From: a virus
Taxonomy: Duplodnaviria > Heunggongvirae > Uroviricota > Caudoviricetes
Virus record (IMG/VR): IMGVR_UViG_2740892219_000009
Location: 1-7,142 of that record
Strand: one strand, 5' to 3'
DNA length: 7,142 bases
Positions within the stretch are counted from its first letter, which is position 1. Each line of letters opens with the position of its first letter. This document shows, piece after piece, positions 1,277-7,142 of this stretch. The position numbers and the translations under genes were made by a program. Under the pieces are notes generated by a model, which did no database searches, had not been told where the DNA came from, and worked only from the letters and a program-made list of their open reading frames with translations.

Positions 1277-1949
1277 TATCTTGCTGTGAAAATGTCGCCT
1301 TTTGTTTTGAACGTGTTCTCGTTACCAGCAATAAAGCTTCGCTATCAAGCTGTAGAAAAATGCGCTTCATTGCAACCCAGCGTTCAGTGAATGTCTCAGA
1401 CCAGTTTTTTGATGTCACTCCCACCAGTGATGCCAGCTCCTGGTATTCATAGGTCTCACGCCCTGCCAGTTCGCTCTTCACATCCTGTGCTGCCAGCCAG
1501 ATTAACGTCTTCAGGCGATCCAGTGTTTTACCTGCAATTTTTCTGGTACCCAACAGAGCCTTAAACTCGCTCCATGCCCACTGCGTTATGGCAACCTGAT
1601 GCTCCCAGCGAATATTTTCACTGTAACTCCACAGCAACCATGCTTTCTGATGTTCATCGAGAGACAAAATCGCACGCCGCCATGAAGAGGTTGAAAACTC
1701 GACCGAACTGACCAAGGCGACAGATGAACCTTTTGCGTACGACTGTTTACCGGAAATCGGCGGATTATCCAGCGTAATCATCTTGCCAGTTACCTCATCC
1801 AGAATGCGCGGCTTCTTTCGTTTATATGTACCAGTATCAAATTGTGCATGCTCCAGCCAGGCTTCAAGCTGGCCTTTCGTTGCTCCGCTCAAATCAGCGG
1901 TAGCCACCATGAGTTGCTCGCGGACATACTGTAAATATTGGATATTCAT
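1260..1949 (-). CDS. Putative late-gene antiterminator in the Q position (229 aa; not the lambda zinc-finger Q type)
   Basis: Track ORF with ATG at 1949 preceded by AAGGAG at 7-nt spacing; its start overlaps the ylcG-like stop (ATGA). It sits between rusA/ylcG and the late promoter and holin, exactly where lambdoid phages carry Q. The protein contains no cysteine, so it is not a lambda-type Q; assignment is positional. Confidence 0.5.
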   Translation of the reverse strand: MNIQYLQYVREQLMVATADLSGATKGQLEAWLEHAQFDTGTYKRKKPRILDEVTGKMITLDNPPISGKQSYAKGSSVALVSSVEFSTSSWRRAILSLDEHQKAWLLWSYSENIRWEHQVAITQWAWSEFKALLGTRKIAGKTLDRLKTLIWLAAQDVKSELAGRETYEYQELASLVGVTSKNWSETFTERWVAMKRIFLQLDSEALLLVTRTRSKQKATFSQQDIAKLD

Positions 1950-2086
1950 GCGGCAGCTCCTTTCAGCGTTTTGGCGTAATTCTTCAGTATCCGGTAATCG
2001 GTCAAAACAGAACCGGGAAAACTATATAAGCGCAGACACACCCAGCGGCGGCGAAGACGTTCTGCCATATAAGACTCAAACATCAT
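1946..2086 (-). CDS. ylcG: YlcG-like small protein (46 aa) between rusA and the Q candidate
   Basis: Hand-translated from the minus strand: [46 protein letters not shown]. The start overlaps the rusA stop (ATGATG over TGA) and the stop overlaps the Q ATG. Size and position match the small ylcG ORF of DLP12-type prophages as I recall it. Too short for the ORF track. Confidence 0.5.
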
Positions 2087-2445
2087 TCATCTCCCAGTTC
2101 AGTGATGGTCAGCTCCAGCTTCCCACCTTTGGTAACGGGCATCTTCACAACGCGGTAATCAACGACCTGAGCATCATCCAGCCAGAAACCTGCTTTGGTG
2201 AGAGCGTCAAAAGCGGCTTTTTGCAGATTATCCAGGTCACGGCGACGGCGATCCGGCATGTGGCACTCAATGCGGATTTTCACAGGAATAGCCAGGCCGA
2301 TATCCAGCATTGCGTTTTTAATGATTTGGGCGACGTTATCGCGGTATGCCTGCCCCTCTGCGCTGATATGCGTGCGTCCGCGATTATGGCGGTAATAGCG
2401 ATTATTGCTCGGCGGCCAGGGTAGTGTGATGCAGTAAGTATTCAC
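2083..2445 (-). CDS. rusA: RusA Holliday-junction resolvase (120 aa, GTG start)
   Basis: Track ORF 2083..2508 (-) is over-extended upstream; the GTG at 2445 overlaps the ybcO stop (GTGA). The sequence [24 protein letters not shown]...[38 protein letters not shown] is near-identical, from recall, to E. coli RusA, including the acidic catalytic cluster. Confidence 0.9.
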
Positions 2446-2732
2446 GCCTTGATTACCCCTTCTTTCAGCCAGATAACCAGTGTTCTCGCCATACCTTCCA
2501 GCGCACATTCTTTTGCATATCCAGCGTCAACAAAATGCGTGCGACGGTCGATTTCGTCGTGGCAGGCAGAACATGCAATGGTGGCAATCAGGTCTGGCGG
2601 TTTGGTACCGGTGCCGCACAATCCAGTCAGCCGGATATGTGCCAGTACAGACGTTTCAGGGTTGCCATTACATACGCCAGGGATTCTTACCTGGCATTCC
2701 CGACTACGCGCTGCTTTTCTCAAATCAGCCAT
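2442..2732 (-). CDS. ybcO: YbcO-family (DUF1364) putative zinc-binding nuclease (96 aa)
   Basis: The start at the internal ATG ([24 protein letters not shown]...) is preceded by AAGGAGG at 5-nt spacing inside the ninE 3' end. A four-Cys pattern (C-x7-C ... C-x2-C) is present. Track ORF 2442..2771 is an upstream extension. The position between ninE and rusA matches the DLP12 order. Confidence 0.8.
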
Positions 2733-2895
2733 GATTCCTCCTTGCTGCCAGTCGCAACCATTTTTTATCAACCAGGCTGGCGGTATATCCGAGCAGTGTT
2801 GGTATTTCGGAAGGCTTCAGCTCCGGTTTACGCTTACGACGATTTGGTACTCTGTAGATGTGTCCGCTCATGACACGAATAAGTGGTGTAGCCAT
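2725..2895 (-). CDS. ninE: NinE-like protein (56 aa)
   Basis: Hand-translated from the minus strand: [56 protein letters not shown]. The ATG at 2895 overlaps the ninB stop (TAATG) and is preceded by AGGAGG; the stop overlaps the ybcO start (ATGGCTGA). Too short for the ORF track. Confidence 0.7.
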   Translation of the reverse strand: MATPLIRVMSGHIYRVPNRRKRKPELKPSEIPTLLGYTASLVDKKWLRLAARRNHG

Positions 2896-3350
2896 TACGC
2901 CTCCTGCTTGTCGCGCAGCAGCTGGAACTCGCAGCTCTGCGGAATAGTCAGGTGACAGCCAATATTCATCGCCCAGGCTTCAACCTTACACAGGAAGACA
3001 TACATCTCTCCGGTATCAAGATCGGAGGTATGGCGTAACGACTGGATCGTAGTAATTTCACCGGTTACGACATCAACCAGGTCTTTGGTTTCATAACCGA
3101 GGTATGTGTGTTTGAGTGCATCTTTTACCCATACTGCAGTAGCGAACGTTTTACCCCTGCTGATGAGGTACTCACTGATTTCGCTGTACCACATGTGGCT
3201 GAGTGCATTCTGGGAAAGACTGCGTCTCTCGCGCCACGGCTTAAGCACCATGCGAAAGCATTTACCGTCCTCCAGATAAGGCTGGATCTGCTGACCGATA
3301 GCGGTGAAGTTACCGCGATGCAGTTTGATGCCATCTTGTGGGAGGTTCAC
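2895..3350 (-). CDS. ybcN: NinB/Orf-family recombination protein (YbcN-like, 151 aa, GTG start)
   Basis: Track ORF; GTG start at 3350 with a GGAGGT Shine-Dalgarno 5 nt upstream. The motif [23 protein letters not shown] resembles the lambda NinB core (RNRSLDQNRKLW...). It is the first gene of the overlapping nin chain. Confidence 0.8.
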
Positions 3351-3555
3351 GCTTCACCTCCGCAGAGGTCAAACGCTAGATGCAAAGAATTGCAGGTGCA
3401 TTTCTGCATCTGTGAAGGGAGAAGAGAGTTTGGATTGTATGTGCGCATAAACGTCCCCGTTTAGCGCAACCCCACCGCCGGGTGTTCAGGCCGACAGCAG
3501 AAGAATTTTCTCTTATTGATAATTGAAAATCAAAAGAATTTTATCGGTAAATGAT

Positions 3556-3584
3556 GTGATCAGATAAGAACCACATGATAGAAT
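3556..3584 (+). promoter_or_regulatory. Candidate promoter for the lipoprotein gene: extended -10 TGaTAGAAT with a weak -35 GTGATC
   Basis: TAGAAT at 3579..3584 is preceded by TG at 3576..3577; a weak -35 (3/6) lies 17 bp upstream. It sits about 37 nt before the ribosome-binding site AAGGA and the ATG at 3621. Confidence 0.3.
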
Positions 3585-3620
3585 CCGCCGGATTTTTTAG
3601 TGTAACAAAAGGAAAAAATA

Positions 3621-3977
3621 ATGAAAAAAATGTTGGCTGTCGCATTGGCAACCCTTTTGCTGACCGGATGTACCGTTCGTGTAGCAGACCTTACTGTAGC
3701 CAGTACAAAAAACTATAATTTAAATGGTGGTAAATTTTACAAAGGAAAACGCGTAACTGCAGAAGATAGCTATCCTGTTATCATCTTCCCAACAGGTATT
3801 CCCAATGTAAAAACTGCTGCCGATCGTGCAATCGAGCAAGACCGTTGCGCTGTGGGTCTGACTGACGTTGTTGTAACACAACTTAACCAATCATTCCTGG
3901 TTGGTAAAATTGGTTTACGTGTTGAAGGGAATCTCATTATTGACCGCAGCCTTCCTGGATGCGAAAACGCAGGATGA
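3621..3977 (+). CDS. Lipoprotein (118 aa), probably a divergent Bor/Iss-family member
   Basis: The N-terminus MKKMLAVALATLLLTGC has a canonical lipobox (LTGC) and is nearly the same as the lambda Bor signal peptide. The mature region shows patchy Bor-like similarity by eye (KTAADRAI..., VVTQLNQSFLVGKIGL versus Bor VKTETQQTFVNGLLGF). It is divergent from ninB and followed by a strong terminator. Confidence 0.65.
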   Translation: MKKMLAVALATLLLTGCTVRVADLTVASTKNYNLNGGKFYKGKRVTAEDSYPVIIFPTGIPNVKTAADRAIEQDRCAVGLTDVVVTQLNQSFLVGKIGLRVEGNLIIDRSLPGCENAG

Positions 3978-3982
3978 TGATA

Positions 3983-4010
3983 GTAACCCACTTCGGTGGG
4001 TTACTTTTTA
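3983..4010 (+). terminator. Rho-independent terminator of the lipoprotein gene: 9-bp stem, UUCG tetraloop, U-tract
   Basis: gtaacccac (3983..3991), ttcg (3992..3995), gtgggttac (3996..4004), then ttttta, starting 6 nt after the TGA stop. It is unidirectional; the minus-strand side has no U-tract. Confidence 0.75.
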
Positions 4011-4111
4011 TCTAAATCATATGTGCAGCCAACAAACAATATACAATTTACTCTAAATAGCTGTGGCAGCATTCTCTAACTTAATATTTATTCCGAAACA
4101 GAGTTAATTAT

Positions 4112-5638
4112 TTAAAAATAAACTTCCCCATCAATCATATACCTGAGAGTACTTATCGCCTGTTGGGCAGATATTATTTTCATCAAAGGATAGTGTTTAA
4201 AAACAATACCATTCATAAAATAGATATCACATGTTTTGTTATCTGTGTTTATTATAATTTTTTCGAATGTTTTATAAGCAAGTGTACGACATAATTCCCG
4301 CCCATTTTTACTGGTTAAATCAATGTCATGGAAATCACCAAGTGTACTTACACCTTTACTCTTCAAAGTTTTTAATGATATAGAAACCCTTCGCAATTCT
4401 TTATCTAATACTCTAATTTTTTCTGCTATAGCGGTAACTTCAGGTGCAACAGATAATGCAACAATTAAATTATTAATTTTCATCTGAAGTTCAATAACTT
4501 TCAATTCCAGAGTTTCATTAACATCTTTCTTATTTTCAACTGGTTGGATTTTACTACAATTAAAAAGCAATTCATTAACTATATTATAGTCAACCAAATC
4601 TCTTCTTATTGATGGCCTGTTACATCGATGCAATCTTCTCATCGGGCAAACATAATAGCCGTGCAAGCTTCCTGATACTGCATTAACAATCATAGTATTA
4701 CCACAAGCGCCGCACTTCATAACTGTTCGCAGTAGATTTATCAACATAGGATTCTTGCTACTATTGCTAATACCAAAAGGTGCCAGCCGAATTTCCTGCA
4801 CAGAGTAAAACAAATCATCTGATATCACTCTGGGATAATAGTCAGCGATTTCAATTATTCCCTTCCCTCTTGCACGATATGAAGGTACGCATATACCTAT
4901 CAGCGCTTTATTAGCTAATAATTTTTCAATTACAGAAGGCCCCCATGCACTTTCTTTTCCTGAGAAATTCTTTATAGCATGATCATTTAAATACTTAGCA
5001 ATTGCATTCAAAGAGCGTCTTTCCATCCTTAGTTTAAAAATCAGCTCAATCGTTTTCACCCTGTCAGGGTCTAAGACAAACGACGTTCTTTTTTCATCTA
5101 ATGAAAGCCATCTCGGGCAAGATGCCGTCATAATCGTACCTGACTCCATTGCATCTTGTCTTTTTTTCTTCCATGATAATTTAACTCGGCTTGACTTTAT
5201 CTCGCTTTCTTCATTGGCTCTTTGAGCTATAAGTATTGCTTTTATTAATGAATATGGTTCATTTAAAGAATCAATATTATAAGTTGTATTATCGCACAGA
5301 GTTATAACATCAATACCATGATTTAAAATCAGTTTCAGGCGTTCAATCGCCTCACCGACTTTTTCTCTTGAAAGTCTGTCCAGACTTTCAACTAGCAATG
5401 TAGTTCCTGGCAATATACAGCCATGCTCTATGGCATCTAAAAATTCCGAAAAAGCTCCTGACTGTGCATGCTTTCCATTGAATGCGCTTAACCCCAAATC
5501 TTCATACGTTACGGTATCAAGGTAATAATCACTATTTACCTTTAGCCATTCAGTAATAAGCCTTCTCTGACGGTTTAATGAATCACCAGACATCTGGCTT
5601 GGTGATGAAAATCGCATATATGCTATGGCTTTTTTCAT
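4112..5638 (-). CDS. Large serine recombinase (508 aa; resolvase-type catalytic domain, recombinase domain, Cys-rich zinc ribbon)
   Basis: The N-terminus MKKAIAYMRFSSPSQ...GDSLNRQ...LLVESLDRLSR carries the serine-recombinase catalytic motifs. The C-terminal half has the zinc-ribbon pattern KCGACGN...YYVCPMRRLHRC and a coiled-coil-like region. ATG at 5638 has an AGGTG Shine-Dalgarno. The gene is visibly AT-rich (roughly one-third GC by eye, against over half in the nin module). Size and context recall the DLP12 putative recombinase ybcK, but identity is unverified. Confidence 0.85.
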   Translation of the reverse strand: MKKAIAYMRFSSPSQMSGDSLNRQRRLITEWLKVNSDYYLDTVTYEDLGLSAFNGKHAQSGAFSEFLDAIEHGCILPGTTLLVESLDRLSREKVGEAIERLKLILNHGIDVITLCDNTTYNIDSLNEPYSLIKAILIAQRANEESEIKSSRVKLSWKKKRQDAMESGTIMTASCPRWLSLDEKRTSFVLDPDRVKTIELIFKLRMERRSLNAIAKYLNDHAIKNFSGKESAWGPSVIEKLLANKALIGICVPSYRARGKGIIEIADYYPRVISDDLFYSVQEIRLAPFGISNSSKNPMLINLLRTVMKCGACGNTMIVNAVSGSLHGYYVCPMRRLHRCNRPSIRRDLVDYNIVNELLFNCSKIQPVENKKDVNETLELKVIELQMKINNLIVALSVAPEVTAIAEKIRVLDKELRRVSISLKTLKSKGVSTLGDFHDIDLTSKNGRELCRTLAYKTFEKIIINTDNKTCDIYFMNGIVFKHYPLMKIISAQQAISTLRYMIDGEVYF

Positions 5639-5904
5639 GTTGACACCTGCTAATGCATACTTTTATAAACCTTAGCGGCGAGTTATAATTTTGTTTAATT
5701 TTTATTTAAAAAGACAATCGAGATCACATTTTCTTAAATATACAACAAATACCCCATAGCAATTTGCTGCCACATAAATTCACAGACACAAAAGAATATA
5801 GTGTATAAGCAGCCTAAAAACATTTATCAACAGTATAAAAAGAAGTTCGTTATCAGTGAATTGTTCTGTGATTGGGGATTATTGAACTTCTCGATCGAGA
5901 ATAT

Positions 5905-6198
5905 TCAGAACCCAGCGGGGGAACTCTTTGGCCACAGGAGTTCGTGCGAACATGACGATCCGTTGGTCTCCCCGAAGGCTAAATACTCGAGACGCCTGCA
6001 TTCCACGAGGGTGGTCACTTTGCCCCCTCCTATCATCATGTCTGTAAATTCATCTGAGTGACGAGAGTAAATGCGCTTAGCTGCGTTATCGTCCGCATAT
6101 TCCATTGCTAAACCAACTTCAGTGGCAGTAAGCCAAATTCTGTTGTTGTGGCAAATCGGGGTAAACGTCGTTTTGTGGAATGCTAATTGAGTAGTCAT
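5905..6198 (-). CDS. BRO-N / antirepressor-N-like domain protein (97 aa), possibly a truncated N-terminal fragment
   Basis: ATG at 6198 has a GAGGTG Shine-Dalgarno at 5-nt spacing. The motif F.K..FTPICHNNRIWLTATEVGLAMEYADD...SDEF resembles the BRO-N / P22 Ant N-terminal signature (F.F...IR...DGEPWF.A.DVA..LGY...D.DEK). The ORF ends where composition switches to AT-rich, and there is no C-terminal domain. Confidence 0.45.
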   Translation of the reverse strand: MTTQLAFHKTTFTPICHNNRIWLTATEVGLAMEYADDNAAKRIYSRHSDEFTDMMIGGGKVTTLVECRRLEYLAFGETNGSSCSHELLWPKSSPAGF

Positions 6199-6222
6199 AG
6201 TATCACCTCATCAGGTTAACAA

Positions 6223-6255
6223 TCACCACCAACGACGCCAATCGACAGGTGGTGA
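6223..6255. other. Inverted repeat with 8-bp stem (tcaccacc ... ggtggtga) and 17-nt spacer, upstream of the BRO-N-like gene
   Basis: Arms at 6223..6230 and 6248..6255, inside a GC-rich ORF-free stretch about 25 nt upstream of the BRO-N start. Could be an operator or an RNA hairpin. Confidence 0.3.
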
Positions 6256-6561
6256 ACTGTGCAAGGTTGGCGTAACCGGCTACACAAACCCGGCGCTTCC
6301 GAAGAAGCCCTCACACAGCCCACCATAATTTGGGCGTAGCCGCGCTTAGCGCATAAAAAAACTGCTTAACGCGGTATGCGTTGAGTAGTGTTCCGGGACG
6401 CCAATCCCGTGTGCCGATTTTGCGGCAACACAAAGAATTAGCCCCAGTGAATGGTGGCGGTCAACCGCAGTCATTCATTCTCATAATGTGATCACCATCA
6501 CTCAACAGGTTCCAGAAACCGCTCTATCATACTGACTTTAAACAGTTTTTAGGTGTTAAAT

Positions 6562-6948
6562 ATGTGGTTTATAGTATTAATAGCTATCCTGATTATTGCC
6601 GCTTTCGTTTTTAAAAGCTCCAAATCCAAAAATCCACCTTCGCAACCAGTTCGTACTACTAAAAAAATAAAGGCACCCACACATAAAAAAACGCAAACTA
6701 ACTATAGTTATAGTACCGATATCATTGAGTTAGATATAACTTATCAGGATGCGAAGGGCGAAATCACTAATCGCCATATATCTATCATAAAATACGACCC
6801 TTCAAAGAAAAAAATATATGCACGGTGCCATTTAAGAAAAAGCATGCGAAGTTTCTATATTGATAGAATATTAACCGCAATAGATATTGAAACTGGCGAA
6901 ATTCTTTCAGATCTCGACGGGTATATATCAGAAAGAATAAACTATTAA
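6562..6948 (+). CDS. Small membrane-anchored protein (128 aa) with a WYL-like C-terminal domain
   Basis: Track ORF 6553..6948 starts at a GTG; the ATG at 6562 is preceded by AGGTG at 6-nt spacing. The N-terminus WFIVLIAILIIAAFVF is a single transmembrane helix, followed by a Lys/Ser/Thr-rich linker and a beta-rich domain containing KIYARCHLRKSMRSFYIDRI, which resembles the WYL-domain core (WYL.A.C......R.FR.DRI). The gene is AT-rich. Confidence 0.6.
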   Translation: MWFIVLIAILIIAAFVFKSSKSKNPPSQPVRTTKKIKAPTHKKTQTNYSYSTDIIELDITYQDAKGEITNRHISIIKYDPSKKKIYARCHLRKSMRSFYIDRILTAIDIETGEILSDLDGYISERINY

Positions 6949-7142
6949 CATTCAATATATTTACCCCAAGCATTATGTGCCGGGGCATGTAATTATATGA
7001 CCATTGATAATTCCATTTTGTAAATATTTAGGTTGTCATCAATGATAGTGCGTTTACTTTTCCATACACAGCCAACACTCGTTTCATCGCGACACTCTGG
7101 CGACACTCCTTAAAAATCAGGTTCGTGCTCACCTTTCCTTCC

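Follow-up and report, generated by a model that had tools for sequence, protein, structure and literature searches.

A frameshifted antirepressor-like gene remnant at a mosaic joint in an Escherichia albertii lambdoid prophage

Introduction

The closest described systems to the locus considered here are the immI region of phages P1 and P7, arranged as c4-icd-ant, the CI RNA of P4 with seqA and seqC, and the isrK-orf45-anrP genes of Gifsy-1 in Salmonella. The C4-type mechanism of P1 and P4 is well-established (PMC4825925). In Gifsy-1, IsrK opens the ribosome-binding site of orf45 in trans, AnrP is produced by way of translational coupling, and antQ lies upstream of isrK (Hershko-Shalev et al. 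2016, PMC4825925).

Intact members of the gene family to which this locus belongs encode proteins of 202–204 aa. Examples are the E. coli prophage "P22AR C-terminal domain-containing protein" WP_021568450.1 (204 aa) and the "Rha protein" XSB42083.1 of Escherichia phage PhiR26_1 (202 aa). They are made up of two Pfam domains, Bro-N at residues 17–100 (40.4 bits) and P22_AR_C (PF10548) at residues 110–180 (58.8 bits in locus L001). Many phage relatives match the BRO-N part only (residues ~1–104), which is joined in them to other C termini. The PHROG label of the family is "anti-repressor Ant," and it is from this label and from annotation that the BRO-N/P22AR_C subfamily takes its putative antirepressor name. 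Inactivation of a phage repressor by the downstream protein is likewise suggested by annotation labels, and the gene at the present locus is a pseudogene.

A further point of reference is the cryptic DLP12 prophage of E. coli K-12, where the recombinase gene ybcK is preceded by emrE and ylcJ, the latter a 49-aa ORF, and followed by ybcL. Phages 4A7, Perceval, D2, and others likewise carry ybcK homologues.

The DNA analyzed here, termed the window, is a stretch of 7,142 nucleotides that makes up the whole of contig BBVT01000064.1 in assembly GCA_001514865.1. The accession series BBVT01000001-119 belongs to Escherichia albertii strain E2675, which was isolated from a raven in Japan (PMC5797873). 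The original prediction, made from the letters alone, drew attention to a short BRO-N-like ORF ending near a compositional boundary. It was taken to be either a C-terminally truncated gene that marks an insertion junction or an intact single-domain protein. We describe below how this locus compares with the systems above and the order of its decay.

Genomic Setting

The window covers part of a lambdoid prophage, its early-right/nin region, with transcription running along the minus strand, and the truncated gene, referred to here as ant, occupies the variable region between ren and ninB. The features discussed are collected in Table 1.

Table 1. Features of the window and of related loci (positions without a locus name are those of the window)
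Feature	Position	Strand	Remarks
End of ren	7061–7142		
AT-rich block with 131-aa ORF	6553–6948	+	
isrK-C4-ant cassette DNA	5843–6471	-	Common to ~1311 E. coli genomes and phage PhiR26_1
isrK-type sRNA (RF01394)	6355–6427	-	52.7 bits against a gathering score of 50; marginal
C4 antisense RNA (RF01695)	6245–6330	-	75 bits against a gathering score of 45; model positions 1–87 of 87
36-aa ORF (predicted)	6216–6326	-	Overlaps C4, with its end 17 nt upstream of the ant ATG; in the position that orf45 has in Gifsy-1
Leader between C4 and ant ATG	6199–6244	-	Second GAUUGGCGUC copy (6243–6234; a2/b2-like C4 target) and GAGGUG ribosome-binding site
Antirepressor-like gene remnant, entire	5843–6198	-	Codons 1–119 of ~204; 92.4% DNA identity to WP_021568450.1-type genes
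97-aa ORF	5905–6198	-	ATG start; stop at 5905–5907
C-run with 1-nt deletion	6009–6011	-	CCC, against CCCC in intact homologues; -1 frameshift after codon 63 (…KVTT|)
Nonsense codon TAA in restored frame	5879–5881	-	CAA (Gln106) in intact homologues
Recombination joint	5842/5843		ant codon 119/120 to ylcJ codon ~4; GC/AT boundary; 2–4-nt microhomology (CTT/CTC); also in L007, L014, and L017
ylcJ remnant	5695–5842	-	Lacks the start and about the first 4 codons; 7-nt indel and in-frame stops
Large serine recombinase gene (ybcK homologue)	4112–5638	-	Intact, 508 aa; ~90% DNA identity to E. coli and phage ybcK
Lipoprotein gene	3621–3977	+	
ylcH/ybcN (ninB-like), ninE, ybcO, rusA, ylcG, Q antiterminator, first lysis genes			In this order below the lipoprotein gene
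Frameshifted ant genes	L010:4001–4608; L012:4001–4608; L013:2644–3251; window 6009–6011		
ant 3' fragments beyond ybcK	L005:3595–3906; L003/L004:3906–4066		Overlap window 5843–5901
Cargo of the slot between ren and the ant cassette	L001:6969–8864; L002:7170–8672; L009:4052–5068; L010:1686–3188; L012:2906–3253; window 6553–6948 (+)		

Several neighboring segments vary in their own right. What lies in the slot between ren and the ant cassette differs from relative to relative (a NACHT protein, PD-lambda-1, DUF4041, SNIPE/T5orf172, and VCH_CASS14), and in the window the slot contains the 131-aa ORF, which has a hydrophobic N terminus and a weak WYL-like match (Pfam E = 0.007; phrog_6785); the slot looks like a hotspot for defense or accessory genes. 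Positions 3524–4094 have a GC content of 38.9% and encode a 118-aa lipoprotein (LPAM_1 signal; phrog_7441, full length). This block has no megablast match among 5,426 complete E. coli genomes and ~77% DNA identity to Klebsiella phages, and, adjoining ybcK as it does, it is apparently a moron that was acquired separately. A segment covering a 33-codon ylcH-like ORF lies just upstream of ybcN (window 3380–3468, extending to 3534) and is duplicated, with 86–92% identity, beyond the ant cassette in the E. coli and PhiR26_1 loci (L001/L002:6773–6861, extending to 6927). The same segment is the left crossover of the cargo exchange described below, and it may be a handle for homologous recombination in cassette exchange. 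Finally, a weak isrJ-like Rfam match (1165–1244 on the minus strand; 25 bits against a gathering score of 37) sits just downstream of the 229-aa Q antiterminator gene (1260–1949); in Gifsy-1, isrJ is in the same locus as isrK and anrP.

Lesions of the Antirepressor-like Gene

The predicted ORF and its good ribosome-binding site are both present, the latter being a GAGGTG Shine-Dalgarno sequence 5 nt before the ATG. The window contains many spurious antisense ORFs that are longer, such that a length of 97 aa is not in itself above chance, and the origin of the ORF in a gene is therefore established by homology and not by length. Of the nine candidates from a protein search with the 97-aa sequence, every one was a short or frameshifted fragment, and the intact 204-aa family was not among them. 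That family was reached instead through DNA searches, in which window positions 5843–6471 showed ~92% identity to a segment carried by phage PhiR26_1 and by ~1311 of the 5,426 complete E. coli genomes. The window shares with these loci, besides this identity, the ren-nin position, the upstream isrK and C4 RNAs, the start codon, and the ribosome-binding site; it differs from them in a -1 frameshift, a nonsense codon, and the loss of the 3' part that encodes P22AR_C.

As called, the ORF has no match to Pfam Bro-N (PF02498) at E ≤ 1, and it was this failure that led to an analysis in three frames. Codons 1–63 (6010–6198) are authentic BRO-N N-terminal sequence, whereas codons 64–97 (5908–6009) read the second half of the same domain out of frame. 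Scored separately against the Bro-N gathering score of 25.6 bits, residues 1–63 reach 12.8 bits and a second-frame ORF of 40 aa (5879–6001, minus strand) reaches 15.4 bits, the latter bearing the C-terminal Bro-N signature "FSLRG…MFARTPVAKEF.RWVL.ILD." When the deletion is repaired, the conceptual product passes with 31.7 bits (residues 17–100, profile positions 8–93 of 96), and the domain in the restored frame runs on to codon 119. The BRO-N motif of the original prediction is thus real for the first 63 codons, and the ORF that was supposed to carry it is not recognized by the profile.

A tblastn search with a 204-aa homologue gave the same picture, with residues 1–63 aligned at 6198–6010 and residues 64–119/120 at 6010–5840 in the next frame, internal stop included. 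Residues 121–204 are absent from every frame of the window, as is the P22_AR_C domain (PF10548). The third lesion, seen in an alignment with two intact genes, is the complete loss of homology after codon 119, at 5843/5842. This coincides with the sharp compositional step that had been noted near the ORF, from a GC content of 49.8% in the isrK-C4-ant block (5843–6471) to 34.2% in the ybcK block (4095–5842). The last residues of the ORF had been thought to run into the AT-rich flank. In fact, all 97 codons lie within DNA homologous to the antirepressor-like gene, the step falls 62 nt past the stop, and the tail is a product of the frameshift.

Over the first 119 codons, a simple Nei-Gojobori count between the window and intact alleles gave Nd 16.5 and Sd 9.5, compared with Nd 0 and Sd 9 between two intact alleles at an equal synonymous distance. 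Selection on the window copy therefore appears to have been relaxed, fitting decay, although part of the nonsynonymous excess could reflect allele divergence rather than decay, because no intact copy of the E. albertii-type allele was found.

Taken together, these observations make it very probable that the ORF is what is left of the 5' end of a dead antirepressor-like gene of ~204 residues, in which a frameshift and a stop came first and the 3' half was lost later at the joint with the ybcK block. If made, the 97-aa product would carry about two-thirds of a BRO-N domain, its last 34 residues being junk, and would be expected to have no antirepressor function. A residual role of the 63-residue BRO-N fragment, or of the transcript, may exist.

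The Upstream RNA Cassette

The DNA preceding ant encodes two structured RNAs, isrK and C4, and the pair is found before ant in all five related loci tested (L001, L002, L010, L012, and L015), in which C4 scores 72–75 bits and isrK 58.7–60.7 bits. A third Rfam match, to c4-a1b1 at 6390–6440 on the minus strand, overlaps isrK and is below threshold (32 bits against 46.7).

The 10-mer GAUUGGCGUC occurs exactly twice in the window, in the hairpin loop of isrK (6406–6397) and in the leader between C4 and the ant ribosome-binding site (6243–6234); GATTGGCGTC, likewise, is found only at 6406–6397 and 6243–6234 on the minus strand. C4 itself contains, in a conserved single-stranded stretch, ACGCCAA (6273–6267), which is complementary to both UUGGCGU repeats. 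It is therefore flanked on both sides by complementary target repeats, the downstream copy being next to the ribosome-binding site of ant. The proposal that these are C4 targets is based on the exactly repeated 10-mer and its 7-nt complement, and not on duplex energies or on the c4-a1b1 score. The predicted duplex of C4 with isrK is more stable than that of shuffled sequences (4 of 500 shuffles as good), and that of C4 with the leader is no better than mononucleotide shuffles (112 of 500). The 251-nt leader as a whole folds more stably than shuffles (z = -3.3).

The similarity to Gifsy-1 is one of layout. An isrK-family sRNA, a small ORF, and an antirepressor-like gene lie on one strand, with the start of the small ORF ~100 nt after the 5' end of isrK in both cases. 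The predicted small ORF is 36 aa long here compared with 45 aa in Gifsy-1, the antirepressor gene here is a pseudogene, and the cassette lies between ren and ninB, whereas the Gifsy-1 genes follow antQ. With P1/P7 immI and the P4 CI RNA, the locus shares a full-length C4-family RNA and complementary GAUUGGCGUC repeats on both sides of it. It differs from immI in having no icd homologue and in encoding a BRO-N/P22AR_C protein rather than P1 Ant1/2, and any regulation here would be by analogy. Within these terms, the comparison shows that the ant gene once belonged to what is, by analogy, an antirepressor cassette of the P1 immI/Gifsy-1 IsrK type, with the order isrK-C4-(small ORF)-ant. In such a cassette, the C4-type antisense RNA and the IsrK-type sRNA would together control translation of the antirepressor, as in P1 immI and Gifsy-1. 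Both RNA genes appear to be intact in the window and may still be expressed.

The ybcK Joint and the Order of Events

The neighbor across the compositional step is an intact homologue of ybcK. The encoded protein has the expected three domains of a large serine recombinase, namely Resolvase (PF00239, 68.2 bits), Recombinase (PF07508, 55.5 bits), and Zn_ribbon_recom (PF13408, 35.1 bits), and is classed as an integrase (phrog_95). Homology of the window to ybcK loci extends from 4095 to 5843 and ends 7 nt inside ylcJ, which is why ylcJ is left without its start and about four codons. Compared with DLP12, the window thus shares the 508-aa ybcK, with ~90% DNA identity, preceded by sequence still recognizable as derived from ylcJ. 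It differs in that a break inside ylcJ joins the block to ant, in that emrE is missing, and in that ybcK is followed by the lipoprotein gene rather than ybcL. A sigma-70-like match on the minus strand (5832–5860; TTCACT-17-TATACT, 9 of 12 positions) straddles the joint, with the -35 element in ant DNA and the -10 element on the ylcJ side. Six promoter-like sites were found in comparison with 4.9 expected from shuffles, so there is no enrichment, and the match at the joint may be due to chance.

The order of the lesions is revealed by other contigs. A near-identical 97-aa protein, P0001, is encoded on four further contigs (L014–L017). In two of these, L015 and L016, identity to the window is 99.1% between positions 7142 and 5843 and stops exactly there. 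Both contigs share its CCC and its TAA, and yet they retain the full P22AR_C-coding 3' part of the gene. Beyond ant they encode two other ORFs, of 58 aa and 210 aa (phrog_5712), before rejoining the window at 3468, upstream of ybcN. In terms of coordinates, L015 1546–2857 (1312 nt) is replaced by window 3469–5842 (2374 nt). Because both lesions are present in these contigs with the 3' half intact, the frameshift and the nonsense codon are older than the truncation. The joint itself recurs: L007, a Logan assembly made independently from the strain's reads (run DRR017170), shows 100% identity to the window across 5358 nt; L014, from another strain, has the same ant-ybcK joint with 98.8% identity over 5.2 kb; and L017, a metagenome contig, also spans it. 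In L014, ybcK is called as two ORFs (1484–3011; 408 and 94 aa), such that the recombinase gene is decaying in that lineage.

These observations can be rationalized in terms of two steps. In the first, visible in L015 and L016, a 1-nt deletion in a run of four C and a change of CAA to TAA killed the ant gene. In the second, an exchange of hotspot cargo replaced the 3' end of ant and the two downstream ORFs with the lipoprotein gene, ybcK, and the clipped ylcJ. One crossover lies in the conserved ylcH/ybcN-upstream segment, at window ~3468, and the other is the joint of ant codon 119 to ylcJ codon ~4, at window 5843/5842, which is probably illegitimate. The coordinates of both are observed directly; the mechanism of recombination is read from the sequence, and the joint most plausibly arose by illegitimate recombination during lambdoid phage module exchange, with YbcK as a passenger.

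A recombinase gene adjoining a truncated gene, at so sharp a GC/AT step, raises the question of whether the joint is instead an attL/attR-type site made by YbcK, a ybcK-borne element having integrated into ant. Further encouragement for such a view comes from E. coli Z217-4 and phages 4A7 and Perceval, in which a 3' fragment of ant (from ~residue 100) lies downstream of ybcK, as an intact 99-aa P22AR_C-only ORF in Z217-4 and in decayed form in the two phages. However, the 3' fragment overlaps the 5' fragment of the window by 59 nt instead of abutting it, and no genome with both ant pieces flanking ybcK was found, so that a single conservative insertion is unsupported. Because the joint clips ylcJ, it lies inside the conserved emrE-ylcJ-ybcK block and is not the end of a mobile unit. 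A search around the ybcK block (4095 and 5843) for inverted or direct repeats, att-like symmetry, and target duplication yielded only short, chance-level matches. A serine-integrase attL/attR site would be expected at the end of the mobile unit, with imperfect dyad symmetry about a crossover dinucleotide and with the element abutted by both halves of its target; the joint differs, being inside ylcJ, lacking repeats and the 3' half of the target, and representing a replacement relative to L015. No ant remnant lies beside ybcK in K-12 DLP12, an exact junction 29-mer has no match in 185,579 GTDB species-representative genomes, and searches of 5,426 complete E. coli genomes did not recover the junction. 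Integration by YbcK is therefore very unlikely, and the joint at 5843 is not to be taken for a recombinase att site. The idea of a C-terminally truncated gene at an insertion junction survives in its first half, the truncation at the AT-rich recombinase joint; a clean insertion junction it is not, given the clipped ylcJ, the lack of repeats, and the replacement of cargo.

A Recurrent Frameshift

Decay followed by module exchange accounts for the locus, and its C-run deletion is not unique to it. The identical CCCC to CCC deletion occurs on three allelic backgrounds. P0003, a 79-aa protein of E. coli-type alleles that carry it, appears in 46 blocks of the collection; in L010 and L013 the deletion is the only difference from the intact L002/L009 allele; and L012 represents a third allele, 48 mismatches away, with the E. 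albertii type ~55 away. H19, suspected of carrying the frameshift because a second "hypothetical protein" is annotated there, was found to be intact. The shared deletion could reflect a recurrent hotspot, selection against the antirepressor, or short-patch conversion.

A more elaborate proposal would be that the recurrent CCC deletion is a selected off-switch for a potentially lethal prophage-induction gene under IsrK/C4 control, and that in E. albertii the isrK-C4 leader and dead ant have additionally been co-opted as a riboregulated upstream transcription unit for ybcK. We regard this as speculative and unlikely.

The same recurrence on three backgrounds and many contigs could be held to favor a functional switch, resembling phase variation or acting through ribosomal frameshifting, by which the gene would be conditionally expressed. 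This is highly improbable, since efficient slipped-strand switching needs a run longer than 4 nt, the site lacks an X XXY YYZ slippery heptamer, the restored frame of the window still meets TAA at codon 106 with the C-terminal domain missing, and nonsynonymous changes have accumulated. Sequencing or assembly error, in which case the true product would be a 105-residue BRO-N-only protein ending at the TAA, is less credible still: a 1-nt homopolymer change is a classic type of error and the TAA falls just past the end of the BRO-N domain (residue 100), but the NCBI assembly has CCC, as do the assembly that Logan made independently from DRR017170 and four more datasets (L014–L017), and it is because of this recurrence in several datasets that the lesions are considered real and not artefacts of assembly.

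The other possibility raised originally, an intact and naturally short single-domain BRO-N protein of ~97 aa, can be dismissed almost outright: phage relatives that share only the BRO-N residues do exist, and P0001, at 97 aa, is 99% identical with the same C terminus, which is formally the kind of homologue named as evidence against truncation, but the ORF fails Pfam Bro-N, its residues 64–97 are out of frame with the second half of the domain in the next frame, and P0001 does not speak against truncation because it is the same pseudogene allele, followed in L015/L016 by the rest of the gene in the other frame.

Conclusions

Ordinary prophage decay and mosaicism have left the ORF as a pseudogene remnant beside a mosaic joint, within a prophage hotspot, and the gene family, the RNA families, and the neighboring recombinase are all already described. 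The ORF should be annotated as a pseudogene fragment, with a frameshift, an internal stop, and a missing C terminus, and not as a 97-aa BRO-N protein; beyond annotation, its significance is small. The recurrent homopolymer frameshift may be of interest to those who study the domestication of prophages. Because the states before (L015 and L016) and after (the window and L014) are both known at ~99% identity, the locus can be dated, and it provides a tidy case in which prophage decay preceded an exchange of cargo at the ren-ninB hotspot. It also illustrates that regulatory RNAs, in this instance isrK and C4, can outlive the protein gene that they control.
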